A stretch of DNA of 63,942 bases, the filler included, from Collodictyon triciliatum (taxonomy: Eukaryota): NCBI GenBank assembly GCA_043381765.1. It is 23 parts of 23 records of this genome, joined end to end, with 100 filler letters (N's around TTAATTAATTAA, not from the genome) between each part and the next. Parts side by side here need not be neighbours in the genome. Positions count along the whole stretch, not along the records: positions 5,712 to 8,465 come from JBHJMP010008351.1; positions 8,566 to 11,319 come from JBHJMP010008352.1; positions 11,420 to 14,173 come from JBHJMP010008353.1; positions 14,274 to 17,027 come from JBHJMP010008354.1; positions 17,128 to 19,880 come from JBHJMP010008355.1; positions 19,981 to 22,735 come from JBHJMP010008356.1; positions 22,836 to 25,657 come from JBHJMP010008357.1; positions 25,758 to 28,509 come from JBHJMP010008358.1; 15 more parts are not named here. One strand, given 5' to 3'. Positions 6,146 to 46,443 of the stretch are shown piece after piece. A program made the translations under genes and the position numbers. How positions within the stretch are numbered: position 1 is the stretch's first letter; each line of letters starts with the position of its first letter. The notes below the pieces were generated by a model, which was not told the DNA's origin, ran no database searches, and worked only from the letters and a program-made list of their open reading frames with translations.

Positions 6146-6715
6146 CTATTGACGAAAGCAGGAGCTTTGATGAATCCAAGAAGCAACCAGAATAATATAA
6201 TAGTATGATTAGTTTATATAATAATAAGGTTAAAATACTGCAATATCTCATTCTATTCCTGTAATTAATTTATATATTATTTTCCATCGTGTAATTATTG
6301 TTTTGGATTAAAATTCAAAAATACAAGCAAGCCCTTGCGTTAGCCCAGACAGAACCCACCCTATACACCTGCCAGCAAGCATACATTTCAAAAAAGCATA
6401 CTATCCACACTTGCGGTGGTAATCAAATTGTTTGGGGCCGAAATGTTGACTTTCAGTCGCAATGGCTATACGGCCGTCCTTTCGAACTCGCCGAATCGGC
6501 TCCCAGCGTTTTCTCTCAAATCACTTGTAAAAAACTTTGTGTGTTTGTTTGCCACAATGCGCACATTTTGAGAGTATCGGCAGATGCTTAATTTTACATA
6601 AATTGGTTTTATACAGTTATCTTTTTATTTATTAAATCGACTAATTGACTGAAGTTTTATTAAAATTGAAAACTCGGTAGTTCTCTAAAGGAAAAAGCAA
6701 AACAAGGACTTTCAG

Positions 6716-8465
6716 ATGAAGAAAAGGAAACGTCTTGAGTCTGAGAACCTAAAGTCTATAAAACCAGACTATCAAAATGTGAAAACATCTCAAGTCGATT
6801 GTTAAGAATCCGGATGACTATGAAAAAATCATCAATACGGTTTTATTGTGTCATAATTTGGTTACCGACACTTATCTGTTTGCAAGATGTTACATATTGA
6901 AATCATAACAAGCCCTAACCGTGAAATATTTTTTTTTGTACGCTTTAAAGACTACCAGAAAAGTTTCACGGGATAGACCCGCATGATTAAAAAAAACCAG
7001 ATGTGAGCATCACATGATGACTTTTTATCTCCATGATTTTCGATTCCTTTTGTCCCGAGAACGCTTTCCGTTGGTTGGACTATCTCATGTATTACCGTAC
7101 TTGGCGAAGCAAATGTTAACAGCTTATCATAATAACATTAAGGTACATTTTGTAAAGAGGTTACTGTGCTTTATAAATCAAAGTTCCCAAAGATGAGAAT
7201 ATTACGGAAGCTATTAGCGAGTTAACTTAAAAAAGATCTTCAAGAATTCGAAATACCGGAACAATAAAAAGGATGGGCTACAACGCATCTGAATCGTATC
7301 ATTCCCAGCGATATTGTAAAAAGTATCGAATATGATGCCAAAGTCAATGAATCGAATAAAGGAAAAAATGATGCCAAAGTCAATTCAAATAAGCCCATTC
7401 CATGTCTGATTTACATGAATCGCATTTTTGAGGACATCGGAGCCAAACTGTTTCAACCAATCTCTATAAGAACTAATACTATAGCATGTCATATTAGTCT
7501 AGATACTGTATGTTTGATAGGTCTATTAGTATTATCTGGAAAAACATTATTACTGAAGAATATATCAGGATGCAAAGAGACACTATGGGATGAGTTCTTT
7601 GAAATGAAGAAGAGGGTCTTTCATCAAAAAGACTACAACTTTAAACACATGATACAAACAGACGGCTTGGTGGTGTTATTATTGTTTGAAAAGAAAGGTA
7701 TTTCAAATTCAAAACCCAAATTATAACAAAAAAAAACCCCAAGAATATGTTTATTTCAATTAACTTTCCAAAGACCAGTTATCTTTATTAGCGACAAAAA
7801 AAAATTGTTGTAGTGGACGCAGGCAAGTTTAATTTGGTTTACATGGTGGATGAGACAGGTAAGAAATTATGTTACACGGCACACCAAAGAAGACATGATA
7901 GCAAATCTCTTAAAAATCACAAAATACTCATGCACTAGAAAAAAAAAGTACAATTCTTCAGCGATATGCATGGCAACAGATTTACAAAGTGCTTTTTCTT
8001 TTGGTCTCAGGGCTTTTGAAGAGAATCAGCAGTTTGAGATATCAAGAGTATCTTTCATCGATTTAGAGACATAACTGGATTAATATAATTCATGCACGGT
8101 CGATTATGAACAATTTCGAGAATATGCATCTATGAAATCAAAATACCAGATGGAATTTTCCAGATTTTATGAACAAGTAACTTTTCGGAAGATGAGGTGG
8201 AGACATTATGTTAAAACAAAAAGAAGTGAAGAATTATTTATGGACCGAATCAAAAAGACATTTGGCAAGGATGTTGTAGTGGCGTATGGAGACTGGAGTA
8301 GAAAATGTCCGATGAAACATTTAACGCCAACAATCAGAAGAGGGTTACAAAAAATACTATCCAAAAGTTTTGAAACAGTTAGTGTAGATGAATTTAGAAC
8401 CTCCAAGATGTGTTGTAACTGCGAAAAGGAACTGGAATATATGAAACTGAAAGGAAATTCAAAAA
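6716..8465 (+). pseudogene. Degenerate Fanzor1 (eukaryotic TnpB-derived RNA-guided nuclease), cut at the contig end
   Basis: Motifs occur in Fanzor1 order across frameshifts: VKTS.KSIV, YLAKQMLTAYHNNIKVHF, LIYMN...KLFQPISIRTNTIACHISLDT, IQTDG, RuvC-I VVVDAGKFNLVYM (Asp 7816-7818), FRKMRWRHY, VVVAYGDWS, RuvC-II VDEFRTSK (Glu 8390-8392) and Zn-finger CCNC. Several stops and frameshifts are present. Confidence 0.88.
7332..7384 (+). mobile_element. 19-bp retroposon tail insertion with 17-bp target-site duplication (TSD)
   Basis: ATGATGCCAAAGTCAAT (7332-7348) + GAATCGAATAAAGGAAAAA (7349-7367) + ATGATGCCAAAGTCAAT (7368-7384). Confidence 0.85.
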
Positions 8466-9146
8466 NNNNNNNNNNNNNNNNNNNNNNNNNNNNNNNNNNN
8501 NNNNNNNNNTTAATTAATTAANNNNNNNNNNNNNNNNNNNNNNNNNNNNNNNNNNNNNNNNNNNNCTAACCACCGCTTACATAAAGTGGAAGAAAAGAAA
8601 AAAAAAAAAAGAAAGACGAGAAAAACTTGCGATCTGACAGCCACCTCATCCAGGCGACAGGAATCATATTTCTTTTTGATGATGGATTCAATGAGATTAC
8701 ATTCTTCATTGTGTGGTTCAGTGCAGATGAAGGATATTGGGAAACAATCGCACGTGAGTCGTTCAGCTGCTTCGTTGCCGAGCGAAGACGTCCCACCCGC
8801 CAAACTCCCTCTCGGCAGCCGGTGAAAAGACAAGCACACCCGCCAACGCAAAAACCAAAGCCGGCGCGACCCTTGCGGCCCGCACAAGATACAAAGAATT
8901 TCAGTATATCTGGATTTGAAAGACAGAGGATTCACAGAATCCAGACGTTGAATCGCCATTTGTGCAGATGTCAATATCTCAGTTTGTACATTTGCGACCC
9001 ATGAGCATTGAAAATCAGGCGCGTCCTGAAAGGTATAAATTAAATCTCTTTAATGGAATACACGATATATCAAAAGTTCTCATTCGTTTCTACAATCGCC
9101 AGGCTTGTCCGTAGCATTTGTCAGCATCTCGCTTCGTCATACCAAA

Positions 9147-11319
9147 ATGGGGAGTCTAACATTGTCGGACATCCACAAAATTGCCGATGAGTGGAAACCC
9201 GGGCATGTGCGGCCCGTAAACCGGACTTTGCTCATTATCACGGAAAAGCGTCTTTCAGTATTCCCAAATGTAATGTCAGAACTGCGAGACCTACTCAGAC
9301 TCGATTTGAATGACAACATCCTGAGTGTCATTCCTGAATGGATTTCATTGCTGTCCAAACTCGAAACATTTCAAACTTACAACAACAATATCATGACTAT
9401 GCCAAAGACAATATCGAGTCTAGTAAATCTGAAATTACTGCGACTCGATGGAAACAAGATAAAAAGAATCCCAGATGAAATATCACGTTTGACCAACCTT
9501 GTAGAATTTCACCTTTTTGACAATCAAATCACAACTTTACCTAACGGAATATCTCGACTCACAAAATTAACCTCCTTCGGCCTATGGAAGAACAAAATAT
9601 CAGTTATTCCGGACTGGATATCTTGTTTGGCAAAAATGAAAGACTTGTATTTATTTAACAATAATATCATACTAGTCCCAATTGAAATATCGGAATTGAG
9701 TACCATTACATTACTGCGACTCGATGGGAACAAGATAAGAAGAATCCCAGATGAAATATCACGTTTGACCAACCTTGTAGAATTTCACCTTTTTGACAAT
9801 CAAATCATAACTTTACCTAACGGAATATCTCGACTCACAAAATTAACCTCCTTCGGCCTATGGAAGAACAAAATATCAGTTATTCCTGATACAGTATTTT
9901 TTCTGCCCAAGCTGAAGAGCTTATCGATCAACAACAATCAAATTACATCACTTACGGAAGAAATATCGAGATTAAAAAACCTTACCGTTCTTCGCATGGA
10001 CGAGAATATGATAACTGCTCTTCCCGAGGAGGTATCTTGTTTGAGAGTATTGGTTGAACTCCATCTGTTTGACAATCAATTAACATCCATTCCAAATGGC
10101 CTGTCGCGACTGAATAATTTATTGCATTTAAACTTTGACAGAAACAAAATATCGTCTATACCAGATCGGTTGTCATGTCTATCTGTATTGAAGAGCCTGT
10201 CCGTCAGCGGTAATCTTATATCGTCGTTGCCCGATTGGATATCACGTCTGACAAACTTGACTACACTGGACGCTGATGACAACCAAATATCATCTATTCC
10301 AGACGCAGTTTTTTATCTGCCTAAATTAAAGGACCTATATATCAGTGATAATTTACTTACATCATTGTCAAACGAAATATCCCGATTAACTCTCTTGACT
10401 ACTTTAAATATCAATGGGAATCAAATAATAACCCTTCCAGCTGGACTCTTTTGTTTGAGGGAGCTAGTTGAATTCAATCTCTGTGACAATCAAATCTCCT
10501 TATTGCCCAATGATATATCGCGATTGAATAAGCTGACATATATGCTTATTGATCAAAACAAATTAGGTATACTTCCCGGTGGATTATTTTGTCTGAATAA
10601 ATTGAGATACTTTTCAGTAGGCTATAATCTTCTCACATCCTTGCCCAGTGAGATATCGCGATTGACCAACTTGACGTGCTTGCAAATCAATGGGAATCAC
10701 ATATCAGTCCTTCCAAATGGACTATCTCGTTTGCCTAAATTGAACGAATTGATACTTTTTCAAAACCAGTTGTCGATTATTCCTGGTTGGGTTTCTGCTC
10801 TATCGCATCTCTCAACCCTAAGCGTTTGGGATAACCCGGTATGCTTCAAAATAAGATATTTCAACTATAAGTATTGCTATTTCTGCATTTGGTTTATCCT
10901 TCATAATTCATTAGATGACTGAACTGCCTCCTGAAATCGTTCTATTGAGAAAAATGGAAGAGTTGACACTAGAAAATAATCAAGGAGAGGCTGGCATTAC
11001 CCGTGCACCCAAAGGAATATCCAAACTTCCCTGTTGGAAAAACAACACGAAGCCGCAGCCATTTGAAGATACTTTTTGGACGAGGACTTATGCTGAAGCT
11101 CTTAGAAGATTGACTCTCTATGAAACTGTTTGTTTTTTTCTTCTAACAGTCAACGGAATAAATGTAATGTTTTGAATCATCAACCAGAAAAATCATGATA
11201 TCGCATTAAAATTTTATCGTGAAAGGTACAGGACGTGACAAATCCTCCAGAAGCATTAAAATTAGAAGGGAAAATAACATCCGAAAAATCTCGATATTCG
11301 GAAGAAACTTCAACAATCG
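9147..11319 (+). CDS. Leucine-rich repeat protein (over 20 LRRs of 23 aa), 3' partial
   Basis: ATG at 9147. Exon 1 runs to 10838 with repeated LxxLxLxxNxIxxLPxxI. GT-AG intron 10839-10914, exon 10915-11127, and a further exon from about 11226 to the contig end. Confidence 0.92.
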
Positions 11320-11733
11320 NNNNNNNNNNNNNNNNNNNNNNNNNNNNNNNNNNNNNNNNNNNNTTAATTAATTAANNNNNNNNNNNNNNNNNNNNNNNNN
11401 NNNNNNNNNNNNNNNNNNNTGTTTTATGTTTTATTTTTTATGTTTTATTTTTTATGTTTTATTTTTTATGTTTTATTTTTTATGTTTTATTTTTTATGTT
11501 TTATTTTTTATGTTTTATTTTTTATTTTTTATTTTTTATTTTTTCTTTTTTCTTTTTTATGTTTTCATTTTCTTTTTCTGAATAGTACATCTCTTTCTGC
11601 TATCATTTTTATCTGCAACTATTCTCTCTTGTCTTCGCCCACCCCGGAGCAGAATGCAGTCTTTATTGCGAACCCAACTTCATCTCTATCGGTTTTTCCT
11701 TTGTATTTCTTCATCAAACTTAACTATCTGCAG

Positions 11734-12231
11734 GGCGTCATCATATCAGAGAATAAGGAAAAAACTCGCTTTGTCGTTGAAGATGGAACTGGGTTCATCA
11801 ACCTCATATGCGACCAACTTCTCCCAGTCGGACAGTCACTTTTTCAGAAAGGTGCCTGACCTCGTCCTTTGCTGTTTAATGCTTTACAGTATTATTTGTT
11901 TTTAAACTCGTGTTTACTGCTTTGATTATTGTATTATTTTTCTTATGATTTCATCTGTATGCTCCACACAATCCGCAGGAGTCTCTGTCGCCGTGATTGG
12001 ACATGTGACAAAGCAAGGAACAGCGTGGTACATAATCCCGGAAAAGATCACCGATGTATCACAAGATCCAAACAAGGACACGATGTGGATGTTAGAGGTG
12101 ACCTCATTGACCATATCTCTGACATTCATTTCTATCAATCACATCATTTCTATCAGCCACATCATTTCTATCAATCGCATCCATAGGTCATCGAAGGCAC
12201 AATGGACCTCCAGGAGCAAGCCGGCAACTGA
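11734..12231 (+). CDS. RMI2: RecQ-mediated genome instability protein 2 (OB fold), 5' partial
   Basis: Exons 11734-11851, 11979-12097 and 12187-12231 splice in frame. KITDVSQDPNKDTMWMLEV parallels the RMI2 C-terminal motif KMTDLSDNP.HESMWELEV, and a DGTG OB-fold motif lies upstream. Confidence 0.75.
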
Positions 12232-24840: not shown

Positions 24841-25657
24841 ATGGGAAATACTTTGTCTGCTGAAGACGCGCTTATGGAAGAAGTCCGGAAACTCTCTTAC
24901 TATCCATTTGCTGATATTGCCACTCTGAAAAGCTCCACATCTCTGAATCTCGGTAACAGGAATCTGTCATCTGTGCCGCCTGGTGTTTTTTTGTTGACTG
25001 GTCTGAAACTATTGGATCTTGGTCGCAATCAGTTGTCATCGCTACCTGCACAAATATCGTGTTTGACTGGTCTGAAAGAATTGGATCTTGATAGCAATAA
25101 GCTGTCATCGCTACCTGCACAAATATCGTGTTTGACTGATCTCACATATCTTTCTGTTTATAACAATGAGCTGTCATCACTACCTGCACAAATATCGTGT
25201 TTGACTGATCTGAAAGAATTGAATCTTGGTAGCAATAAGCTGTCATCGCTACCTGCACAAATATCTTGTTTGACTGGTCTCACATATCTTGCTGTATGCA
25301 TAAATCCGGTATGATTTTATTCATATATTATATTTCTATTTGTGTTTAAAAGATAATGACTGACAACGATACACGCAGATGGAGGAGCTTCCAGCACAGA
25401 TCACAGCACTCACAAATCTGAAAGATCTCTGGATAAACGCTGGATGCACACAAACCATAAAGAGAGCCCCGCGTGGCATCTCAAATCTCCCCTGCTGGAA
25501 CAACACAGGACACAGAGACTACCAACACATCCGCGCATTGCAGCTCTACGACCCCGTAAGCACACATCCACCCCCAACCCCCACATACACAACACAGGAC
25601 ACAACTAACATACCCCTAGGTCGATACCGCAGCTGAAGCTAAAAGAGCAGCTGAAGC
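24841..25657 (+). CDS. Short LRR protein, paralog of the 9147 gene, 3' partial
   Basis: Starts MGNTLS. Exons 24841-25308, 25379-25555 and 25620-end. Near-identical 69-nt units encode LSSLPAQISCLT. Confidence 0.9.
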
Positions 25658-27631: not shown

Positions 27632-28509
27632 ATGACTCTGCACTGTACTCGGTAAATGACTGCTCTCATGTAATTAAAAAAACGACATATGCGTCAATCA
27701 TTGCGACTTGGAAAAAGAGATATATTTCGCACAGAATACTGATGATAGTATTTGGTGTCAAATAAGTTTTGATTGGAAAAATGACAGTAATAGCGAAGAA
27801 ATGAAAGTGCCACTCATTTACAGCAAAAGCAAGAAGGAAAGGCAAACCCATTTCTTTGTCTTTCCAACGGCAAGTTTTGGAAGCCCGCGATAAGGCTATC
27901 GAGCAGAAAGCACGCTTTGCAGACTTTTTTTGGCTGCTGATGTATCCGCATCGTGAACACACACTTTGCATAGGAGTTCGCCCTGGTTATCAAAAGTCAT
28001 CGCTTCGACCGATTGGATGATATCTATTGAGATAGTCTAGACACATGCGCAGCGCATCCGCATGAACTAAATCAAGAGTACAAATTTAACATTATATTGG
28101 TTTTTGATAAAAAAAAAAGGCCACTGATTTGCATGGAAGTAAAGAGAATACACTAAATATCTACTTTTCATATTTATTTTTAATGCTATTAGTTCAACGA
28201 ACACATTTAGATGAAAAAAAAACCTACAATTTCACTCGGCCAAATACACTCCTAATCGTTGAGATAGTCTCAACCAAACCTGTCATGGGTATTCGATGCA
28301 TACCTAAAATGAAAGAAGTTACGGTTTGAGTCTTTATTTATGATTGTCGAGGATTTACAAAGGGAGGAAAGTTCGCATCCCAATCTCTTTCTCGTAGCAA
28401 AACTTGAGAGGTTTGTGCCATGGGTGTGGTGCTAAAGAAATCAAAAAATTGAAATAAATTTGTAATAAAGTGAAAATATTAAAATATATGAGTTTTCTTG
28501 TGATTGTTT
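27632..28509. repeat. Dispersed repeat of at least 880 bp, copy 1
   Basis: Collinear and highly similar to 57086-57988. Confidence 0.92.
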
Positions 28510-29277
28510 NNNNNNNNNNNNNNNNNNNNNNNNNNNNNNNNNNNNNNNNNNNNTTAATTAATTAANNNNNNNNNNNNNNNNNNNNNNNNNNNNNNNNNNN
28601 NNNNNNNNNGACGTGCAATAGCTCTTTGGAGTTGTTGCCCATGAAAAAAGGACTTAAAGATGGCCCGATAATGGTTTGTGATCAGAGCTGGCTCTGGCTG
28701 TGGGTACGTAGAAGACGGAGAGGAAAAGGAAAGGGAAAGGAAAGGGCGATCCTGTCCTTTGGGCGCGGTGTCCACAGCCGCAGATTTATCGAAAGACATC
28801 CCACATATGTTATTTCCAAATTCTGCAAAGGAAGAATCGAAAAGAAAAGCCGCCAGACTAAATTGCCCACGGGCTGGGTTCGTCCGGCACAAGAAAATAC
28901 AGCAAGGCAGATGGGAAGGCTGTAAGTAGATTGTAAGACAATGCACATTTAATTGTGTGGGTGGGTGGAGGGTGATAAAATGGTATTTTTTTTTCCTTTA
29001 TTCGATTCAAAGATTTCAATTTGCGCGAGATGTATGCTCTGGTCATGGTTTGCTGGCCACGTAAATATCATCAGGTATAGCTAAGTGCTATAGGCTAAAG
29101 TTTGGCTATTTAAACATAAACACAAACTAATCCACGATAGAAACATAAATTGAGAGTGGACATGGTCATTATGGAAGACAAAAAAAAAAAAAGAAGCTAT
29201 TGGCACCCCGCAATTCTTCACGGGATATCGCATTTATTATGGGCAACAGGTACATAATGCGTAGTCATACGAGAACG

Positions 29278-29375
29278 AAGCTTTTGATTGATTTTCCCCC
29301 TTTATTCAATTCAAAGTGAATGGGGACAAAGCCTTACACAGAGCGAGAAAGATGCATGTGGAAAGCTTTTGATTG
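29278..29375 (-). mobile_element. Diverged retroposon tail insertion (about 72 bp) with 13-bp TSD
   Basis: AAGCTTTTGATTG at 29278-29290 and 29363-29375 flanks ATTTTCCCCCTTTATTCAATTCAAAGTG... Confidence 0.65.
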
Positions 29376-29885
29376 GTTTAATTACAAAGGTACTTCGATG
29401 CTTGCTTAGATGGAGGTGAGGACATGTTATTGTTGTTTTTGAAGCTGCCTCTGCCGCAGGGAGTAAGAAGTCTAAAATAACATTGTGTTTAAATTTTTCA
29501 CATCTCTTACTCAGGTTTTTTGAAAGAAAAGTAGATAGGCTAAAAAAAAAAAAATGAAATTATCTCAATTGGCACTGATCAATTCCACTTATGATTGTTG
29601 TCTACCCTAATCTTTTGAAAACAGATTATCAATATTGTGGGAAACTTCAACAAAATAATTACAATAATTCTATTTTGCTCTGGAGTTTCATTTCCTTCTG
29701 TTCTTAGCTGCGTGATTGTTGTTCTTTAATCTATATAAAAGGTAGCAAAGACTAAGAATTACATTTAACGTCCCTACATAACTTTCAAGTATCCTAAGGG
29801 GTAAGAGAGGATGCGATGATTTACAGCAATCCAATACAGATATTGTATTATAATTAATTGAAAGAGAACAAAAGTGCATGTTTCC

Positions 29886-30625
29886 TTACCTTTCAGGTCG
29901 TGATAAGTAGCGCAGTGATGAACAATTCTCTGTGGGCATTAATGAGTGTGGTGAAACTCCCATTTGATTCAAGTGAGTGGTAACAGAGGAGATGTCACCG
30001 CTTCTACGCAAATTGTCACGTAGTAAGCTACTAAAAAAGTTGTGGAACCTATTTGCTCTAATCAGACGTGATGGCTTCCAGACAAACAAATAGACCCTTG
30101 AGTTACCCCCGCCATCCAGCAAATTAGTTTCAGGCGGAATGTTTGGATTAGGTCCGGCCATGTAATCTTGTGGTTGAGTGTTAAAATTATCTGTGTCATG
30201 GGCACCAGGCAGAATCGTCGATCCGGTGCTCGTTTCAGATTCATGGGCACTCGTAGAAATTACACCTTTTAGGAATGATATTGCCGATGAAAGTAAGTGA
30301 ACGACATAATCAATAGGGGAGTAGGGCAGAGGAGTTTCGCCAGTGACTACATTGGTTCCCGCAGGTGGATTTGCAACCCCAAGACTTTCATCTGCGGATG
30401 AAGGTGTCTCCTGGCCAGGGTTTGAGAAAACGACCCATACTATGGACGGATTCACTATGTTGCGATATTGTGTTTCAACAAAGAACGCAAATCTTTCTGG
30501 CTGTGATACTCCCCCATACTCAAAGAGAATTGCCAGCAGGGCGAGAAGTATGAGACCCCACGTGAAATAAGAGTCGAAAACTGATGTGTTCTCCGATGTC
30601 AAACTATGACCAACTTGGAGCTCCT
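29886..30625 (-). CDS. Uncharacterised protein exon with one predicted TM segment
   Basis: Open frame of about 245 codons after a CAG acceptor, containing hydrophobic WGLILLALLAILF. No family recognised. Confidence 0.45.
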
Positions 30626-30726
30626 GTAACGAATAAATAATGAATTTTGACGGGAAAAAAAAATATATCCTATTCACTCTCCGGAAAAAGGATGGTACTG
30701 TCGGATGAAAAAAAAAATTAATCATG

Positions 30727-30795
30727 AAAATGAGAATGAAGATTATTTTTTTTCCTTTTATTCGATTCAAAGTGTAGCAAAATGAGAATGAGGAT
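30727..30795 (-). mobile_element. 35-bp retroposon tail insertion with 17-bp TSD (1 mismatch)
   Basis: AAAATGAGAATGAAGAT (30727-30743), then T-run+CCTTTTATTCGATTCAAAGTGTAGC, then AAAATGAGAATGAGGAT (30779-30795). Confidence 0.75.
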
Positions 30796-31495
30796 GAAAA
30801 TGAGAATGAGGCTGAGTTCGAAGACTCCACGATAACTTGGCATAAAAACCTTTGCATAGTCGTGAGATTTCTAGTTTTACCGCAAAGTCTGGAGGAAAAA
30901 AAACCATATGTGATTGATACTCAAAATTCACCATCTTAAGCTGCAGGGGTCAGAGGGAAGACTTCGTATACTTGTATTGAACGGAAGGTTTGAAGGTAAG
31001 TAATGAGTGTTCCCGCCTGCCAAGGTTGGATTTTTGTGTGAGGTAAATACGACAATGTGTTTGATGAACATGGTCATGACAGAAAATACTATTCTAATAA
31101 CATAGAAGACAGGGGACAGTAGAAAAAAAAAGGATGAGGCAAGAACAACGTAAAACCATGTGTGTTCTAAGAAGCCCCCTTTTTTTCTTTTTTTCTTTTT
31201 CTTTTTCTTTTTCTTTTTCTTTTTCTTTTTCTTTTTCTTTTTCTTTTTCTTTTTCTTTTCTTTTTTCTTTTTTCTTTTTTCTTTTTTCTTTTTTCTTTTT
31301 TCTTTTTTCTTTTTTCTTTTTTCTTTTTTCTTTTTTCTTTTTTCTTTTTTCTTTTCTTTTNNNNNNNNNNNNNNNNNNNNNNNNNNNNNNNNNNNNNNNN
31401 NNNNTTAATTAATTAANNNNNNNNNNNNNNNNNNNNNNNNNNNNNNNNNNNNNNNNNNNNGCATGTTCACTGCCACCAGCTGGTACTGGTGTTTA

Positions 31496-33743
31496 TCATG
31501 CACGCTTTGACTTTGCTATGCCACCCATACATTCTCTGAATTGGGTGCTGTATCCGGTTCTGTCCTCATCCAAGACGGGTTTTGAATTGGCTTTCTACAG
31601 TTACATATTCATGGTATAAATATACACCAATAATGGTTCTTTCATAAAAGCATAAAGAGTTGGTGGTGGATATAAAACGACCAGTTAATCTGTTGCATGC
31701 ATATATCTTGAAAATAATGTTAATGTTAATGTTTATGACATGACCCTGTATCTTGTTATCGTGTGATTCTCTAGAAAGAAGTAAAAGCAAGTATATACCA
31801 AATATTGGGCGATGTAAGAGATGATAATTGAACGGAAAGAAGAAAAGAAAAAGGAACGATTATTTGCTCTTACAGGATTGAGGAGCAGCTTTGACCTTTC
31901 AGCCTCTTTTTGCTCTCTCTGCAATCTTTCTTGTCTTAGTTTTTCGATTGTAGGCAATCCACTCTCTTGTTTTTGGGCTAATCCCTTTTGCTATACCAAT
32001 TAAGTGAGAATGGTGCCATAGAGGAGTATAATAATTTGTTTATTTGTTTTTATAAAAAAAAAATACATTTCTTTCGATTGGGGTGAATGCAGATATAGAC
32101 AGATAAAATATTTTTTTCCTTTATTCGATTCAAAGATAGACAGATAAAATATAGAAATATGAGACATAAGCCAACATCTTCACCATCCTGCACAAAATTG
32201 AAAGGAAGAATAAAAAAAAAATAGAAATATGAGACATAAAGTGCATATAATGGGGATATGCTTCAATCATTAGTGAAAAGTGGTAATTCGATTTCCCCTT
32301 TTTTCTCGCTGAAAAATAATAATAGTATATTATTTCACATAAACAAAGAACCAATTTGTAGGCTTACCTTGTCTTTACGCTTTTCCTTTTTCTTGTGTTC
32401 ATCATGCTCCTTTCCCTTTTTCTTTTCGAGTTCTTTCGTAAATTGCTGCATGGGATCCATGTCCTTCTTTCTCATTTCATCCTTTCTAATGGTAGAGACG
32501 ACAATAACAAAGAGAAAAGAAAAAAGAAAGAAAAGAAAACTAAATTTCGCGCTAGTTATGTTTGATACATCTACCATTACCTAAGAGGCACACAATATTG
32601 AGCGGAGGAGATAATTTGCCATATGTTGAATAGTAGTTTGTAATGCATCAACAAACAAACTTGAGATCGACTTCAGATAGTTTTTTTTTCTCATCCTGCT
32701 CAAGATACCATGGCTTTGATTCTGTGGGATATGCCGAGTCATGTGATAGAACCATCCATTTTCATCCATAATATTACGCTTATAATTTACTTCACAGAAA
32801 TAATAACTATAATAAAAAAAAATAGGCAACGTCCAGACAAGCATTTCGAAATGTTATTGGCTACAAGCCATTTCTGCTTTGGCAATTAGCTGCTTTTTCT
32901 AAAATATATATGTAAAAAAAAAATCACACCACACCAACCACACAGAGCGAGAGACGAAAACAAAAGAGAGAAAGCAATAAGCTAGAATGAGTTACTGGAC
33001 ATCTCGAGAGACCCATCGCCAAGATACGAGGTCATGCTCTTGGCCTGCAGCTTCTTGGCCTGCAGCTTCTCGGTCTCGGCCTCCTCATTGCCAGGCTGCG
33101 AGGGAAATTTCGTCAGAGAACAGAAGGGACCGCAGACGGAGGCGGGCAGTGGCCACGTACCGGTAGGAGGAGGAGGGCGGGGGAAGTTCCGAGGAGTGTA
33201 GCCAGAGGGTCGGGTTTGTCGTGGGGCGCCGGGGGCGGGGCAGGAGAGTCCTCTGCCTCACGCGATCTGCGCCGCTTCAACTCCTCTACTTTGGCCTCAA
33301 GCTCCTGTGTCAGGCGAGAGGGAATCAGAGAGGGAATGAGAAAGGGAATGAGAAAGGGAATGAGAAAGGGAATGAGAAAGGGAATGAGAAAGGGAATGAG
33401 AAAGGGAATGAGAAAGTGAATGAGAAAGGGAATGAAAGAGAGGGTTTGTCTGTCTGTCTGTCTTTCTATGTATTTGGTGGCTTAGTCGAAGCCCTCTTTC
33501 GGTCGCACAAACACACAAACGCGCTGGTAAGGGCGCTACGTACCACTTCGTTCCTGCGCTTCCGCTCCTTGGAGTCCTTGGCTGCCTGCTCTGCCTCATC
33601 CCTGTGTCAGGACAGACGGAAAGAGGGCGGTGTTTGTGCGTCTGTGTGTTTGTCTGCATGTGCTTATGCGTGCCTCACCTCGCCACCTTGGCCAGGTTGT
33701 CCCGATTCCACACATGCCAGCTCTTGTGGTGGAGGATATTCAT
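31496..33743 (-). CDS. LENG1: Leukocyte receptor cluster member 1 homolog (CIR N-terminal domain), multi-exon
   Basis: Starts MNILHHKSWHVWNRDNLAKVAR|DEAEQ. Later exons give MTSYLGDGS, KPWY, DPM, TIEKLRQERLQREQKEAERSKLLL and GYSTQF, all in LENG1 order. Confidence 0.88.
32095..32152 (-). mobile_element. 24-bp retroposon tail insertion with 17-bp TSD (in a LENG1 intron)
   Basis: ATAGACAGATAAAATAT (32095-32111) + TTTTTTCCTTTATTCGATTCAAAG + ATAGACAGATAAAATAT (32136-32152). Confidence 0.85.
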
Positions 33744-34550
33744 TCCGCGGGTCTGCTCCTCTGCTCAAAGCTCTCAGTGTTCCTGCGCGGTTGATCGCTT
33801 CTTGTTTCTGCAGCTCAGAGTCAGTCGCATTATCTGTCGTTGTGTTCTTCCGTGTGGTTTTGGCAGGCTTCTCTCAATTTGCCGTGTGGAGTGTTTTATT
33901 CAGCGATTGGGTACAGGGCGTGGAGAAGTGCGAAAGGTGTCCAGCGGGGAGGTGGCATGGATGGGGATACATGAGGTGATTAGGCGGTGTGAATACAGTG
34001 TCCGTGTGTGCGTATGTTTGTGTGTGTATGTGTGTGTGTGTGTGCGTGCGGTGGTCTATGCGATGGGCGCAGAGTGCGCGTCGGTGGGCGGTTGTGCGAG
34101 TGCCGTGTCAGAGTCGATGTCGTCGTAGTCGTAGTCGTAGGCGTCTGCGTCGATGTGGACGGCGTTGTGGATGAGCGACAGCGAGAAGGGCGCCGGGGCG
34201 GGCAGCGAGCNNNNNNNNNNNNNNNNNNNNNNNNNNNNNNNNNNNNNNNNNNNNTTAATTAATTAANNNNNNNNNNNNNNNNNNNNNNNNNNNNNNNNNN
34301 NNNNNNNNNNATAAAAAAAGATATAAAAAAGATATAAAAAAGATATAAAAAAGATATAAAAAAGATATAAAAAAAGATATAAAAAAAGATATAAAAAAAG
34401 ATATAAAAAGATATAAAAAAGATATAAAAAAGATATAAAAAAGATATAAAAAAAGATATAAAAAAGATATAAAAAAAGATATAAAAAAGATATAAAAAAA
34501 GATATAAAAAAGATATAAAAAAAGATATAAAAAATTTGAGATAGGCTCAC

Positions 34551-37043
34551 CCCACAAAAGTTTGCAAAAACTTTAATTCTTGTGGCTTCATCCTTGTATC
34601 GCTTCAACGTGGATAGCATGTTGACTAGATTCTAATAGAAATTGATTCTAAAATTGATAACAAAGGACATTCCAATATATGATTTCAATAAGCAAGCAAC
34701 ATAATCAATTCACTTTATTCGGGTGATATATTTAACATACCCCCTCAGCTAGATGTCTCAATCCGTACTTGTTTATAAAATAATCATAAACAAATTCAGT
34801 CATAGACTGTCGAGGATGATGCATTCTATTTTATATTGGAAATTTCCTTAATTCAATTTAAAAAAAAGGCAGAGAGCAGATGAATTTTTACAGGAAAATT
34901 GGAGAAAAATTGAACGAGGTTACTGATTGATATCTCATACTTATCATCTATATCATCAGCTATCATTTTTTCTTGGTAGATGCTGCTTATCATCTTCATC
35001 AAAGTTTTCATACTTAGTAGATTTGTAGAGCCTAACATAATTTTGTGGAAAAGGAAAGGTGAAAATTGATATGGGTGATTAATTTACTTTGGATATATTT
35101 ATACCTTTGAGAAGTTTGGTGAACAGTTTGGAGTTAATGAATCGGGACCACATCTTTAAAGGTACCTTTTTATTTTCAATAGATAGAATATGACATCGCA
35201 TTAAGGCAACTGTAATAATATGATAACGATACAATAATTTCAGCCAAGCAAGGGGAAGGGGACTGAGGGTTGAAATGGAATAGTGATATCGACACAATAT
35301 ATAATTCAAAGAATTGCTTTTTTTTTTTTATAGATAACAAATGATATACACCTCTGCTAAAGGAGCCTTTGTAGCTTTTTTTTTATCGTTATCAAAAAAG
35401 ACATATATTTTCGATAAGTATGCTATTCATAATTGTTTGAAATAATATCCGGTGATTTGAAAAGTGAAAATTATCAATGTGTTACCCCTAATTTTATTCA
35501 TATAATTAGTTGTTGAAATTGTGTAAAAATTCTCTCATCAAATCCAGGATGAAGATTCCGAAAAAAAAAAAAGAGAGAAAGAAAATGATAATATCCTAAA
35601 AGTTTGTTACCCAATCTCATCTTTCGTGACAGCAACAGGTTGTTCGAAAACTACGCAAAAAAAAAAAAAAAGATATTAGATACAGTAAAATACTAAAGAT
35701 TGACTCAGTTCGCACCATCCGTTTCGGGTAATTCATCATTCCTGGCCTCATAAGTTTCTGTCTGTGTTGCTTTGGCTGCTGAGTCGACAAACAACTCAGA
35801 CCTCAAGTTTCGAAGCCTTTCAAGTTCTTTTCATACATAATGTAAATCAGAAAGAAATTACCAAGATATAATGAGACGTATGATCATTTCTTTCGGTGTT
35901 TATGAAGTGTGCGATGGTTTGTTAAACCATGTTTTTAAGCATGCTTTATGAGGTGAATAATTCTTTCCTTTATTTTTGTACAAACAATTCAGGGTTAAGA
36001 TACATATAAAACAAAATAAATATATAATACCTTCAATCAATGAGGTATTCAACTTTTCCAATTGTATCATACGGTGCAGCTTCATGTTAAGATCTGGATC
36101 TATCTTCGATCTTATGTGTTTGTTCAGATTTCTCAAGTATTCCAGATCGTTCATGTAGGTAAAGATTCTTGTGCCTGAAACACTTCTGTTTATAGTGAAT
36201 TTTTTTGATGTATTCAAATCTCGTCATAGACGCCATGATTTCAATTGTGTGTGTTTTTTTAATACAGAGGGTGAGTCAAGTAAAGGAACCCAGAAAGTGC
36301 GAAAATTTACAAACATATCAAGGGGTGCATCTGTAGAGACGTCTAATTCGTTTCCACTAAATTCATGGGCATTCGATTTCACTGGAGTAGAATCACCATG
36401 AACTTGACGTATTCTTCCAGTGTACTCATCTTGGAAAAACAACCCAAAATATATTTCATGTAATCAAATCATAATTGAACGCGGGTTTATTTATTGGCTG
36501 GTAGCACTATGCCTTTATACATATGGCAGTATTTTTTTGATAGAAATATAAAATTACGCATTTGTTCCAACAATTCCTGGTACTTTCTTGATAGCTCCAA
36601 AGCCTTTTCGTTAGTATGCTGTTTTAAGAAAGAAGAAAAATTAAATATAAATTTCCTGGGGTAATTACATTCATTCGGACACAAACACAGACGCTGATAT
36701 ATACAGATAGATATATGTATAAAAGAAATATTCTGATAACCTTTTCTTTCCAAAATTTCTCATTTTCTAACTCTAAGAATCCTAATCTCTCTTTAAGTTG
36801 GATATTTTCGACTTGGTACCTGAAATGAAGAGTTAAGGTCATGAAGGGATTGAGTGACTATTGGTTTTAGTGAAGCAAGGAAAAGGGAAGGTAAAAAAAA
36901 AAAAAAAACTTGATACTGGTCAAACGGGGATTTATAAAATAATCGAACCTTTGTAGCTCCTGTCTCATTTTTTCTATTTCAGATTCACCGTTCCTCGATT
37001 TATCTTCAAAATCAGTGCAGACTTTTAAATACTTTCTGTGAAC
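34551..37043 (-). CDS. Uncharacterised coiled-coil protein with TSNAXIP1-like C-terminal region, internal fragment
   Basis: Many short exons, including LMKMISSIYQEKMIADDIDDK, MTEFVYDYFINKYGLRHLAE and LSTLKRYKDEATRIKVFANFCG. The family label is tentative. Confidence 0.5.
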
Positions 37044-37158
37044 TAAAAAAACAAAAAANNNNNNNNNNNNNNNNNNNNNNNNNNNNNNNNNNNNNNNNNN
37101 NNTTAATTAATTAANNNNNNNNNNNNNNNNNNNNNNNNNNNNNNNNNNNNNNNNNNNN

Positions 37159-37462
37159 TAAATCATACGCAAACAAGCGGGAATGGTAGCTTCCCAAGGA
37201 CTTTCCGGTAACCGCCTCAATCAGCATGGCCAAAAAGAACCCGTCCATTAAGTCATCGCAGATGTTCTTCGCCTTGAGCTCGATTTTTCCCAGGTGGTGG
37301 TTCACCCATTCCAGGGCAGCCTGTACTCAGTTGCCAGGTTAAGTAATCAATTCTCTTCGACATATATAAATATTCCTTGAAGATAATATTTGTATTTGTA
37401 CAGACTTCGTCAATGGTGACAAGGCTGACGTTGGCCTCGGTGCTTGTTTCGGTTGCAGACAT
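37159..37462 (-). CDS. N-terminus of a calponin-homology (CH) domain protein
   Basis: Exons 37462-37406 and 37320 to the contig edge. WVNHHL...ICDDLMDGFFLAMLIEAVTG is the CH1 signature (W.N..L...DL.DG..L..L.E). Confidence 0.8.
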
Positions 37463-38869
37463 ATTTTGAATCTTCCTATTCCTTCGTGTGTTGCAATAAA
37501 ACGTCGTATTCATGGGTTATAATATATGCCAATTATCAATCAACTCTAATATAAATCAAGCTATCCTACTTTTTCATGAATGGATATTGTTTGATTTATC
37601 AATTTTTATTTGAATGCGTTTTAGATAGTTTCATAGGCTAACAAGGCTATATTGTATTAAAGCTTAAAGCTCAATATTACACCTCCTAATATTTTATTTT
37701 TCTTTGTTATGAAATAAACTGTTTGTGAATACAAATATATCTCAATATGAAATGAATTCTATGCTTTTAATTGCTCTTCTTTTTTTTTTTTTGTAAATAA
37801 TATGGATGTGATTTGCTTATGCATCATACGGCCACTAAACATTCTCTAATGCTAAATATTTCGTATAATATAAGAAATGTGATGTATGAAAGTCTGCGTA
37901 ATAGATTGATATTCTTCCAGGTCGAATTATATAATTCCTTTGAATCTATTCGAAACTGTGCAAATGTTCCAAACTATATGTGATGGTTAGTATGTTCCCA
38001 CAGAATGTCAAATTCACAAACAAAATAAAATTGTAATACCGATACTCGTGGACTACTCTTCGTTAATTATAGCCTGGATTTCATCGTGAACGCTTTACAT
38101 GGGATAAAAAAAATACCACCACCACTTAAGTTTTCCAGGCATAGGTGCTTGCCTTCCATCCAACGGAAGCGTTTTTTCCATATGTGCCTTGCATTAACAG
38201 ACAAATCATGAAAAAATAAGCTTCGTTAGGAATTATCATTGTAAAATATTACTATTCGAGTGAAAAAGTTAACTTCCGTTTTGCGTGAAAATAAAAAATA
38301 ATTCTGAATTCATATTATTGCACCTTGAATTGCTTGCCCAGACTGTTTTAGTGTGAGGCGCGTCTCCAAGAATCCGTCCGCTCTTTTTGGAAAGCTCTTG
38401 TGTGAGTTGCTCCTTGTTTGAGCGATGCTTATTCTTCCATAGCTCCGGGTGGTTGGGTCTAAAAGGGTCGACATTGTCTTTCTATACTTGTCAGCTCGTT
38501 CTGTTAGTATTTGCGGCGGTGTTAACCATGATATTTTCTTTTGGCTTTTTCCTTGTGTTCTCTGACAGAGTACGAAATAGAGAAGGGAAAAGTAACATAG
38601 AGTTTTTTTTCGTACTTTGGGTAGTTCTGATGCTGGATTGTTATTCAGCGCTTCATTCATCAAAAACACGTTTTAACCATTGAAGAATACTGCGAATATG
38701 TTGTTTGTTGTTTTTCACGTACCTTCAGTGTCGCCCTTGATGAAGCTCGGAGGAATGCGGCAGATAATGGGTAGCAAAAGAGCTGGCCTCTCTCGTTATG
38801 GGCACAAAAAAAAAAAGCAGTTCATTATTATTTTACTCTCGTCTCTGCGATAATTTTTTTTTTGGGAAA

Positions 38870-39165
38870 GGATGCTATGTATTCTTGAAGTTGATCGAAT
38901 AGCTGGTTTATAGTCATCTCATTATGGCACTCAAGATCTTTCAGGACTGGGCTTATTCTTTCCTTACCTGTATGCGGGCGTGGTAGTTCTGGGGCATTTG
39001 TGCTTACCTCGAAGGCGGACGTGGCAGCCGGTTCCGTACAGGTTCTGCTTCCGGGTGCTCTTTGTGGGCGATTAGGTGTGGCTGGGAACCTTTGGTCGAG
39101 CGGAGGGCTCCGTTCTTGCGTTCGGTTGTGTGTTTGCTTCAAGCCAGCACTTTCGATCTCCGTGC
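38870..39165 (-). mobile_element. Second copy of the 19311 repeat
   Basis: The reverse complement aligns with 19311-19620. Confidence 0.8.
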
Positions 39166-40924
39166 GTTATTCCAAGAAGGAAAAAAATGATAAAAAAAAG
39201 CAATAAGAACAAAATAGAGAAAATAATAATAAAAAATATAGCTATATGTTTGATTGACGATGTGTATGCAGTTCATCATATGAAAACAAAAAGATAAATG
39301 ATGAGTATTGATTCAGACAACCATCAATGCTGTTCCATCAAAGGTTTTCTTATTAAGTTCTCGTTGATTGTGGGAATAAGAGAGGGAATGAACCTTGGAT
39401 CGAGCGTGTGATAGCATCGACCGGTGATCGGCTGAAAATATGCCTTGCGATTGCCAAGAAAATCAATAAATGCACAAGCAAGTCGATCGGCAGCTAGTGT
39501 TGAGCGTCCTTCAGGACAAAACGAAAAGATTGGGAAGGACGGCGGATGGAGAATGGTTGAGTGAAGGGCAGCTGTCACGGCAAAACATCAGAAAGCTGAA
39601 GGGGATTGTGATTGGAAATAAAAAAATAGATGAGTCGGAGAATAGTCGAAAATCAACCTTGTAATTCCAGATTAGGATTTTATAGGAAGATAGCGTGATA
39701 GTGTCCATATATAGATTACAAACATATATAACTTTATATTTCCTTTTTTGTACTTACTTGAGGGGGGAAGGGGTGTTTTTGGGTTTGTTAAATCTACACC
39801 TACACCGGGAAAAAAAAGAAAAAGAAAAAGAAAAAGAAAAAGAAAAAGAAAAAGAAAAAGAAAAAGAAAAAGAAAAAGAAAAAGAAAAAGAAAAAGAAAA
39901 AGAAAAANNNNNNNNNNNNNNNNNNNNNNNNNNNNNNNNNNNNNNNNNNNNTTAATTAATTAANNNNNNNNNNNNNNNNNNNNNNNNNNNNNNNNNNNNN
40001 NNNNNNNAAAGAAAAAAAAGAAAAAAAGAAAAAAAAGAAAAAAAGAAAAAAAGAAAAAAAGAAAAAAAGAAAAAAAGAAAAAAAGAAGGAAGAAGGAAGA
40101 AGGAAGAAGGAAGAAGGAAGAAGGAAGAAGGAAGAAGGAAGAAGGAAGAAAAGAGAAAATAAAAACAAAAAAGGAGTACATGCGCAAACAGTCTATTAAA
40201 TGATGTTTCAATTTTTTTTTATCGTCGCAACGATGTAATTACTCCTTCGATTGTTCTCTTAGACTTAGCATAGAGACGCATTTGCGAAATAGCGAGAAAG
40301 ACCCATTCACTCAGACGCGATTGACTATCGACATGTTACAGCCGAGTAAGTCACCATTAAGTACCAAGCCTCGATGGACTTATAGATTTGTATTATGTTT
40401 AATTGCATAGTAACTTGGTGTTCCCGATATTTTTTTTCTGTCTGAAGCGGCTAATAGTCAGCTATGATTTTAATTACAAGATATGACCAATACAGAGATA
40501 AATAGAGCTAATTATATTCTGGTACTTGTTTGTAGATGACGATTTGCGCAGGCGGATTCAAGAATGGATTGAATCCAAGAGATCTTCAAAGTCATCCTAA
40601 ATGCGCGTGCAGAGTGTCGCTTTTCTTCTGTGGGACTATTGGCTTTTCGGGAAAAAAGGATGGGAAAAAAAGTCCAGTGAACTAAAGCAAAGTGAAGGAA
40701 TTGAAAATTGGATGCAAATCATAAAACACCAGAAGAAAATCCACCCCAATTGATTCCCAGCAAATATCGTGTTGGTATGTCAACTTAAAACTGACAGTAG
40801 AGACGGCAAGCTTAATCAGAGCCTTCTACAGTATGGAATGAAAATATCTGGTGCACGTTTGTCTGGTAATTTTCCAGAGGGTTAGGCGAATCTCGCTTGT
40901 CTCAAAGTCTAACCATGGTTGATT

Positions 40925-41058
40925 TGTGTATGTGTATATGTATGTGTATGTATGTATGTTTGTATGTATGTATGTATGTATGTATGTATGTATGTATGTA
41001 TGTATGTATGTATGTATGTATGTATGTATGTATGTATGTATGTATGTATGTATGTATG

Positions 41059-41087
<29 letters not shown>
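40925..41087. repeat. (TATG)n microsatellite
   Basis: Directly visible. Confidence 0.97.
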
Positions 41088-41089
<2 letters not shown>

Positions 41090-42886
41090 TTGTTCTTTTG
41101 CACGTGAGGCGCTTGAATTCCTGGAATCTGTCAAAGTCATCGCGATTTTATCATTTTTATTTACACCACTATTAACACCGTCATCACCACTGCTATTGTA
41201 AAAACTCCTGGTGACTTTTGTGGAGCCGTTGTCTAGTTTGCCTCCATTCAATATTGATTGTGCCAAGTGAAAACCAGAAGTCCCTTACTTTCACTACTTC
41301 TACTTTCTGCTAATAAGCCTCAACTTATGACCCCACTGGCATTGAGAGGCAATCTGTTTGGCTCTCGCTATTGGTTGAAGGGAGTTCAAAGCCAGCCGAG
41401 TTTGATGGTTCTCCACGAGAGATTCTCTAATAGAAAGAATACAAGCTAGCCCGTTTATTTTTGTATCTTTTCCGATGATGATGATGGTGTGCTTGTGATA
41501 AGACGACTTGGCCATACAAACCCAAACGATAGGCGCGTGTACTATCTAAGCAGGTCTGTCACCAGGCTTTGCATTCGTCACTTCTGAGTATTTTGCCTCC
41601 TGAGTTACGTGTGTGCCTATGCGAAAGCTGAGTCGTTTGTCAGGTATCCCTTATTTTTGTCTCCCATTTATTCACATATAATGCGAGGAATCCGGAGCAA
41701 GTGTTTTAGAATCATTTTGCCTTGAGATGTATAGATGCACATATGTAAGCATGTTATACAGCACAGATGGCGCAACACAGTATCATAAAGCAGCTCTCTT
41801 TTATGGATGGCGCTTTGCGCCAAGCAGTTTCTTGGAATCCTTTGCAGTATTGCGAATCGAAAGGCCAGCTATAAAAAAAAAACTGTATGGAATACAATGC
41901 ACCACAATACATATAAAAAGAGGACGTATTCGTCGGTCGAAGGTTGCTGTCAAATGAAACTACTTCGCTTATGTAAGTATGCCATAAGAATATTTTGTCG
42001 ATATATTATCTATACAATAAATTTCAAAAGTGTTTGACCTTACGCAAAGGATGTAGGGCTTTACAGTTCCTACGCGCATTATTGCATATGAGATTCACAT
42101 TATACGATTCGAACATACCCGTCGGACTAAAAGCCTTTTTGAGCCATTTTCCCTTTTATTTCACAATCGGCTTCTTCATTTATTTGTGTATGAATCATTT
42201 TTAAATCTCAAGCCGGGGAGGTATTGGAAAATATGATTCGATTTGCTGGAATATACGAATTTCGATGCAGATATACTTTCTCATAATGTCTTGAAAGCGT
42301 GTTCACTTGTTGAAGGAAAAACAAAATGAACCCCATATATGATTGATTTAGTATCATGATAATGAGATGTAGGATTTGGAGCGCAGCAAAAAGACTGGTT
42401 TCAAATGAAGTCGTCTATGAAATGGGTGAGTGCCAGATATTATACAGTTCTGTTCCGCATTGTGCAAATATAAGATAACAAGTACAGCGCAACGAAATAA
42501 ATTTACTTTATAACGCGAGCTTCTGATAGGAAACTGAAGCAGACAGGTGGTTCGAAGTACTTGGGTATTAAATTAAATTTAATTCATAGAATACCCTTGT
42601 ACGTGATGAGAGCCCATCGGCAAAAGAAAAGAAAATAAAAGAAAATAAAAGAAAATAAAAGAATAGAAAAGAAAAGAAAAAAGAAAAGAAAAGAAAAAAG
42701 AAAAGAAAAAAGAAAAGAAAAAAGAAAAGAAAAAAGAAAAGAAAATAAAATAAANNNNNNNNNNNNNNNNNNNNNNNNNNNNNNNNNNNNNNNNNNNNTT
42801 AATTAATTAANNNNNNNNNNNNNNNNNNNNNNNNNNNNNNNNNNNNNNNNNNNNTTGTTTCGTTTTTTGTTTGTTTGTGAACAAAC

Positions 42887-43584
42887 CTGCAGCAATCAAA
42901 TCAGTCTCAAGTTCATTAGGATTTCCGGAGCGGGCGCCGGAGAGAGCGAGGATATCCACAACACCGTCATTTTTGACACGGAGAGCATCTTTTTGAATGT
43001 TAGTATAGGGAAGGAAGATTATGGAGTGAAGAAAGTTACTTTTGAAAGGTATGATCTTGAACTATAGTGTAATATTTCTGTTTTCATTGTATCGTTTCTG
43101 TTTCTGTTTCTGTTTCATTGTGCTTATGTTTATGTTTATGTTCAGCTTCTCTCACATACAGAATAGAAAGACATCTGCTTGAATGGAGCCATACCATCCA
43201 GAGCCGTGTTTCCCCAACGATCAAGCATGTTGAGCGGGCTGCCGCGGAATATCAGCAGGCGAACCACTTCAGCCTGACCTTCGGACGCTGCCACATGCAG
43301 AGCCGTGCGTTTGTCATAGTCGCCCACTTTGACGTCCACTCTGCCCTGGTCAAGCAGAGACGCGATTGTGCGGACATCGCCGCGGGAAGCCGCGTATAGC
43401 AAAGCGCCAATAGCCTGTGAATAAAATAGGTTGGAGACCTTGTTTCATGCTTCCTTCAGCTTCTACACACTGCTTTCTTTTTTCGTCTTTCAATTTTTTA
43501 TTTATTTATTTTTATTTCGTTTTGTTTTGTTTTGTTTTGTTTTGTTTTGTTTTGTTTTGTTTTGTTTTGTTTTGTTTTGTTTTG

Positions 43585-43615
<31 letters not shown>

Positions 43616-43787
43616 GTTTTTCGTGGCAATATATAGTCATATTAGCATTTCAAAGGGTATGTGTTTCGCGTGAGGAGCACGACAAACAAGAAAACAAAAA
43701 TAAGATATTTTTTTTTCCTTTATTCGATTCAAAGTGTAGCGAGGTTATGAAAACAAAAATAAGATAAACACTTGCCTCTCCTTCCAT
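42887..43787 (-). CDS. N-terminal ankyrin-repeat protein, 3' partial
   Basis: Exons 43787-43776 (MEGE, GC donor), 43414-43195 and 42988-42887 give LLYAASRGDV...DYDKRTALHVAASEG...DRWGNTALD|DAL. This ankyrin type is seen in glutaminases, AKT channels and ILK-like kinases. Confidence 0.85.
43690..43766 (-). mobile_element. 41-bp retroposon tail insertion with 18-bp TSD (in ankyrin gene intron 1)
   Basis: GAAAACAAAAATAAGATA (43690-43707) + T9-CCTTTATTCGATTCAAAGTGTAGCGAGGTTAT + GAAAACAAAAATAAGATA (43749-43766). Confidence 0.88.
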
Positions 43788-45754: not shown

Positions 45755-46443
45755 AAAAAAAAACAAAAAAAAAACAAAAAAAACCAAAAAGCACTGGGTT
45801 AAAATTGTTTTCTAAGCGGCCTTTAAGAAGTACCTCTGCCTTCTGAATGATAATTATTTTTTTACTTAAAAAAGGGAGATAAATATTGCTGATGTTTCTT
45901 GCAGCGCCACGTACTTGACTTGTATGAGGCTCAATATATAAGAAAAAAAGAAAAAAAAAGAGAAAGCTCTAAAATCAAAAAGGATGGAACCGAAAAGATA
46001 AATTCGGGTTGTTGTTATTGCGAACCTACACAATTTAATCATACCCATTTAGTTATGAATGCACACGAACATTTTTTTCCGGTCATTTTAATTTTTACAA
46101 TTAAAGTCTATATCTTCGGGTAAGAGTCATAGAGATGGATTAGAATGACATAAAACAGACAACGCTTATTCGATTTCTTCTCAATTAATATAACTATTAA
46201 TATATCTACAACATCCAAAAATTCCCACTGTGCAAGTATGTCATGTAATCACCATTTCTTTCCCTACAATTACGTCGGGCTGTAAAAAAATCTAAAAACC
46301 TTTCCTTCCTTGAATGGAATAAAGGGAAAAAAAAACTTCATTCCCCCTCGTGCCACATCTATACATCTAAATTATCTTGTGGTTTCGTATACTTCTCTGC
46401 TTTAATAATTTTATTTTCTTCAAAGAGCACTGCATGTCTTAGC

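Follow-up and report, generated by a model that had tools for sequence, protein, structure and literature searches.

Short tail-only insertions of an L1-type LINE in Collodictyon triciliatum peak at about 18 nucleotides of element sequence

We analysed a 63,942-nt stretch of the Collodictyon triciliatum genome (assembly GCA_043381765.1; hereafter, the window), which comprises ~23 contigs of roughly 2.8 kb each joined by a fixed N-linker, so that features on different contigs are unrelated in position. Scattered over these contigs are copies of a short motif followed by an A tail, which an original prediction from this sequence had described as a family of retroposon-tail insertions between direct repeats. 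Nine matches to the motif were found at up to two mismatches, against 0.20 expected, and none of 100 shuffles reached nine, consistent with a real family. All five of the inserts named in that prediction were confirmed to lie between exact direct repeats, of 17, 17, 18, 13 and 13 bp (Table 1). The motif is the 3′ end of an L1-type long interspersed element (LINE), and the inserts recur genome-wide with a sharp peak at about 18 nt of element sequence. An origin of the inserts from this LINE by target-primed reverse transcription (TPRT) is near certain, because they combine the LINE 3′ end, an A tail, flanking duplications, a T|A-rich target and empty paralogous sites.

The parent LINE was identified by extending the motif upstream, which recovered the longer element that the family had been expected to have. 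The element is ~5.9 kb, summed from overlapping natural copies, and consists of a putative long open reading frame (ORF) 1, then an APE endonuclease, a reverse transcriptase (RT) and a zf-RVT domain. The endonuclease lies at the N-terminus of ORF2 (PF03372, E 2.9e-12, above the cut-off, in L128); the RT matches PF00078 (E 3e-26) and the C-terminal domain PF13966 (E 1.6e-7). Among solved structures, the parent RT is nearest to human L1 ORF2p (E 1e-32, versus 1e-19 for R2). Its named homologues are LINE-1/TX1 proteins at ~30% identity, and other RT relatives at 58–73% identity exist. The candidate ORF1 is an open frame of at least 588 aa in L136, and a Pfam search of it gave no match. Copies of the LINE are mostly 82–96% alike, and all of the copies read are broken by stops or frameshifts. 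There are two subfamilies, defined by A or G at position −21 from the 3′ end (31:18 of 49 copies), which is the only common variant. Two copies (L034 and L051) have large internal deletions that join ORF1 or early ORF2 straight to late ORF2. One copy of ~600 nt starts ~25 bp downstream of a tRNA-Glu(CTC) gene (L010, 2118–2189); this is a single case and no evidence of tRNA targeting. For relatives in other organisms we found one match, a metagenome contig (L202) with the 3′ 1 kb of the parent LINE and a matching tail, a long copy for which no duplication was testable.

We next counted tail copies across the assembly (75.4 Mb in 14,576 contigs), in which one housekeeping protein has its best named match, at 80%, in Acanthamoeba castellanii; as a single gene this is weak evidence for a possible amoebozoan host. 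The exact 15-nt tail is present 2,399 times and the exact 18-nt tail 1,830 times; the count falls to 650 for the exact 21-nt tail of both subfamilies and is 352 for the exact 24-nt tail of the commoner subfamily only. Tail copies are found equally on both strands, and reversed-pattern controls gave zero matches. Because 21 of 71 incidental copies in flanking DNA were exact, rough extrapolation puts the total at ~8,000. Of the 2,399 exact 15-mer matches listed, we took the first 100 to measure element length; several long copies in this sample run off contig ends. Seven copies hold 15–16 nt of the element, 59 hold 17–20 nt, four hold 21–25 nt, 18 hold 26–40 nt, seven hold 41–80 nt and five are longer. 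Thus, 88 of the 100 copies hold 40 nt or less, in agreement with the proposal that this LINE usually aborts within tens of bases. The 5′ truncation had also been described as variable, which is correct in that lengths differ, but it is not smoothly variable given the peak at 17–20 nt. The same peak was seen in a degenerate scan and in the incidental copies (40/71), and copies of 12–15 nt with an immediate A5 tail are rare (162 genome-wide). Among copies that reach position −18, ~64% stop or mutate in the next three bases, as compared to 24% over the three bases before. A tails are uniformly short (mostly 4–10 nt), total insert length peaks at 25–27 nt (22/56), and there is no trade-off between element length and tail length (rho −0.04, p 0.79).

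To establish that the flanking repeats are above chance, as the original prediction required, we compared duplication scores with those of two control sets. A score of at least 12 was reached by 56 of 100 copies, by only 2 of 494 swapped flank pairs, and by 120 of 1,018 other A runs, a set that is probably inflated by simple repeats. A second duplication finder scored 56 of 97 analysable copies, with 37 perfect duplications, and 11 of the 71 incidental copies added duplications to give a pooled set of 67. The duplications expected of TPRT hold across this set, being 15–19 bp long in 60 of 67 copies, and the target is T|A-rich (most commonly TT|AA, 18/67). Paralogous sites compared for two insertions are empty. 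Exactly 36 bp, corresponding to the insert plus one duplication, is lacking at the 7349 site from 11 of 11 paralogues fetched from 43 listed matches. Similarly, a LINE copy (L032) has a 42-bp gain of like kind, antisense in the RT gene, that is absent from all five other aligned copies; eight loci were given to this comparison, of which two yielded no alignment and one aligned elsewhere. Because the paralogous sites are empty, these two gains are true insertions. The short copies hold LINE tail sequence only and have no shared 5′ flank. Of the junctions in 52 short copies, 22 are blunt, 17 overlap the target and 13 have 1–4 extra bases, such that microhomology joining was rejected as the rule; of the 22 that are blunt, 18 fall at 18 or 19 nt. 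A crude splice-donor test of strand bias relative to introns in 178 copies (18 vs 19 and 37 vs 27; p 1.0 and 0.26) gave no support for the idea that copies avoid or supply a poly(A) signal.

A second donor shares this tail. We found 112 copies with a variant base at −17, 47 of which extend into a different upstream sequence, and 137 candidates for this second element, donor B. Donor B is non-coding and ~295 nt long, with a common 5′ start in four stand-alone copies and in six copies joined to a Fanzor-like element, among 20 fetched. Donor B and the LINE share their last 16–17 nt and differ upstream, and some donor-B copies are flanked by duplications. In its build, with repeated full-length copies and a LINE-derived tail, donor B is like a short interspersed element (SINE). 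The donor-B head has what we take, by eye, to be a likeness to tRNA-type A and B boxes, and neither ARAGORN nor Rfam gave a match to it. Donor-B copies are mostly 22–48 nt (20/30), with tails like those of the LINE. Among copies reaching −18, 9 of the first 30 variant copies of donor B were 21 nt or shorter, some of which may be mutated LINE copies, as compared to 45 of 71 LINE-type copies (Fisher p 0.0025). Very short products thus come from both donors. The sharp 18-nt peak, however, is mainly the LINE's and, because both donors share the tail whereas the donor-B peak is weaker, it points to sequence upstream of −18.

Based on these data, we propose that a checkpoint encoded in the sequence is built into the LINE 18 nt before the 3′ end, and we assign this reading a probability of roughly 45%. 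Most reactions would finish at this position as complete, duplication-flanked insertions, and the main product would be a ~25-nt cassette carrying AATAAA, with several thousand in the genome. As to what causes the stop, the odds are about even that it is an RNA stem held by ORF2p that the RT fails to release or unwind. The endonuclease would nick an AT-rich site, reverse transcription would be primed at the A tail, and a second, staggered cut would make the duplication. Nicking, A-tail priming and staggered cutting are established L1 chemistry, and the features shown by the inserts are the known marks of TPRT. The last 18 nt together with ~7 A residues would form a single-stranded launch segment of ~25 nt, copied while ORF2p grips the RNA just upstream, and the gripped structure is probably a small stem-loop at about −39 to −18. 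If the RT mostly cannot release or unwind this stem, the complementary DNA (cDNA) would be joined to the target at −18/−19; copies passing the stop would mostly end within the next 10–25 nt, and few would go on to become long copies. A stem is predicted at −36 to −21, extended in some folds to −18, when 3′ ends 40–250 nt long are folded, and the A/G variant at −21 turns a U-A pair of this stem into U-G. In human L1, as described in part of a structural study, ORF2p grips a template stem-loop with ~20 single-stranded nt leading to the active site (PMC10830416). Two other structural causes were rejected: fold-back of the cDNA on a terminal hairpin, since no stable cDNA fold was found and junctions do not commonly carry C at −19, and a stall at the terminal hairpin itself, which has only −0.3 kcal/mol and whose 3′ arm the RT would copy first.

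We considered whether the LINE enzyme instead uses a discrete RNA of ~25 nt as its template and copies all of it, this RNA being a 3′ LINE fragment generated by host cleavage or by trimming to the ORF2p footprint; the inserts would then represent complete copies of a small processed RNA. The sharp 5′ end, where two bases account for 18 of 22 blunt junctions, and the 1–4 extra bases in 13 of 52 short copies would be expected from such a template; the modal length also matches the 16–17 nt common to both donors, and cleaved or degraded RNA is among the possible causes of L1 truncation named in a review (PMC10760644). However, if the footprint lay on the shared tail, donor B would be expected to show an equal peak, whereas its peak is much weaker, and we consider this explanation unlikely. 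Donor B bears similarly on the possibility that a fixed cDNA length of ~25–26 nt, regardless of sequence, determines where the RT halts or where the intermediate is cut by host repair. The peak in total insert length fits a stop of this kind, and uniformly short tails would make a fixed length look like a fixed position, but element and tail length lack the negative correlation that a fixed length would produce, and donor B, with similar tails, gives mostly 22–48-nt copies. We consider a stop set by length alone less likely than a short template.

We consider two further explanations very improbable. One or more master loci might transcribe the 18-nt tail alone, which would then spread as a family of its own; the fixed 5′ end resembles that of a full-length SINE family, and the 18-nt class outnumbers longer copies by about 2:1. 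By contrast, the short copies have no shared 5′ flank, their lengths grade continuously into LINE fragments, and the inserts have no 5′ head of their own. Moreover, 18 nt is too short for an internal promoter, which argues further against such a family. Alternatively, the peak might be a side effect of selection that removes long insertions, of assembly from short reads or of the search pattern. Long copies are under-measured in this fragmented assembly, because many of them run off contig ends, and the main sample required an exact 15-mer. Nonetheless, none of these effects can give a peak two bases wide with depletion on both sides, at 12–15 nt (162 copies) and at 21–25 nt (4/100), and the degenerate scan agrees with the main sample.

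Several observations weigh against the proposed stop at a stem. The predicted stem is weak, with a stability that chance alone would give (z −0.15; an equally good fold in 102 of 500 shuffles), folding of 30 nt gives a different weak hairpin of −0.3 kcal/mol, and a single wobble-compatible variant is not covariation. Because tails change length after insertion, the absence of a correlation between element and tail length still leaves room for a stop at a fixed length. Donor B may be older or use another RT, and may hold a small 18–19-nt class of its own. The 1–4 extra bases also fit run-off from a short RNA. There was no intact LINE among the copies read, although young intact copies could be hidden in an assembly made from short reads. 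Lastly, a comparison of 4 of 14 listed public runs with window positions 28620–31150 revealed no empty alleles, with coverage too thin to tell; the small word shares found in freshwater runs were not taken to indicate a habitat.

Table 1. Features of the window related to the LINE tail, with positions along the whole stretch.
Feature	Position	Strand	Evidence
Parent-LINE 3′ fragment, ~300 nt (ORF2 end, 3′ untranslated region, tail)	532..834	-	BLASTN to natural copies L023/L032, 79–82% identity
Old internal fragment of parent LINE (zf-RVT region)	2859..2997	+	70% over 138–140 nt
Decayed multi-copy Fanzor/TnpB-like element, host repeat of the 7349 insertion	6184..8465	+	84% to L212
19-bp tail-only insertion (~14 nt LINE tail + A5)	7349..7367	+	17-bp exact duplication, 7332-7348/7368-7384
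Probable diverged copy close to contig start	17173..17192	+	2 mismatches; without clear duplication
Modal-class copy (18 nt + A9)	28986..29012	-	no duplication seen
72-bp diverged LINE-tail insertion	29291..29362	-	13-bp exact duplication, 29278-29290/29363-29375
35-bp insertion (~25 nt LINE tail)	30744..30778	-	13-bp exact duplication, 30727-30739/30779-30791
24-bp modal-class insertion (~18 nt + A tail)	32112..32135	-	17-bp exact duplication, 32095-32111/32136-32152
41-bp insertion (~32 nt LINE tail)	43708..43748	-	18-bp exact duplication, 43690-43707/43749-43766
5′-truncated copy (~60 nt + tail) of SINE-like donor B	46265..46335	+	matches donor-B 3′ ends

The copies in the window illustrate these classes. 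Those near 540 and 46310 had been counted with the family, and both carry the tail motif, but the former is the end of a ~300-nt LINE fragment and the latter belongs to donor B. The 43708 insertion is 100% identical to the parent LINE 3′ end across 46 nt, tail included. The 30744 insertion lies inside an 18-bp tandem repeat, which makes its duplication call the least secure of the five; by reading, the duplication is 17 bp if one mismatch is allowed, which yields the 35-bp insert. A contig from public run X2, probably RNA, skips two intron-like stretches and represents a probable spliced transcript (window 29269–30057, - strand) that in its 3′ part runs through the 72-bp insertion, with AATAAA in sense and six differences inside the insertion. 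The 36-bp gain at 7349 keeps the frame in the decayed ORF of the Fanzor-like element, for which there are 305 candidates genome-wide and a weak match to Cas12f1-like_TNB (E 0.038, below the cut-off). Copies of this element (L204–L214) share an end reading CTAG on the gene's strand, and one (L212) is joined to 437 nt of the LINE 3′ end. Six of the 20 long donor-B copies (L246, L249, L253, L254, L257 and L259) are joined to the Fanzor-like element at one junction, and in four of these composites the A tail marks the end of the shared sequence. Retroposition of the Fanzor-like element via the SINE tail was rejected, because none of the six composites has a flanking duplication. Elsewhere in the window are tandem repeats with periods of 69, 138 and 276 bp (9434–10079 and 24994–25295) that by eye resemble leucine-rich-repeat coding sequence, a 54-bp array of 13 copies (22836–23569) that is possibly coding, and a 2-kb array of 336 copies of a 6-bp unit (59929–61945) with strong GC skew.

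Why LINEs are truncated at the 5′ end is called unclear in a review (PMC10760644), and this question becomes directly testable with an element whose reactions terminate at a single defined base in about two of three cases. If the checkpoint is real, its product would be the shortest recurring retroposon product that we found described, and would capture in nature the transition of TPRT from initiation to elongation. Fixed-length, tail-only LINE insertions were not described in the open-access literature searched, most subscription papers being outside its scope, and one published screen, as excerpted, required at least 30 nt (PMC5322556). Thousands of ~25-bp insertions would provide clean presence/absence markers, and they represent a mutation class that length-filtered annotation may drop. 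There may also be a bearing on retrotransposon-based gene insertion, where truncation limits yield.

Compared with 5′-truncated copies of human L1 type, as portrayed in parts of two papers (PMC10760644, PMC3747384), the inserts described here are alike in having a probably two-ORF parent with an APE endonuclease, RT and zf-RVT, an A tail, duplications of ~16 bp and a T|A-rich nick, and in both cases most copies are 5′-truncated. Typical truncated LINE members are given in a passage of the latter paper as 100–1,000 bp, cut at various positions (PMC3747384); by contrast, 88 of 100 copies here hold no more than 40 nt, and roughly two in three of the copies that reach −18 end within three bases. 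Tails here are 4–10 nt, whereas human ORF2p needs ~20 A according to a portion of the structural study (PMC10830416), and overlap at junctions is modest (17 of 52 short copies, versus 22 blunt). Donor B resembles the SINEs of stringent LINE/SINE pairs in ending in LINE 3′ sequence and an A tail and in having duplication-flanked copies; however, the Chlamydomonas pair L1-1_CR/SINEX-3_CR shares a 3′ tail of ~80 nt in the section that treats it (PMC3747384), as opposed to only 16–17 nt here. Therian tailless retropseudogenes, as outlined in part of their description (PMC5322556), are likewise L1-made insertions with duplications and with ends clustered at defined, structure-related positions, but they derive from 3′-truncated host RNAs primed internally, whereas here the 3′ end is kept and it is the 5′ end that is clustered. 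Overall, we conclude that the inserts are products of 5′-truncated L1-type retroposition, differing from its known forms in scale and precision.

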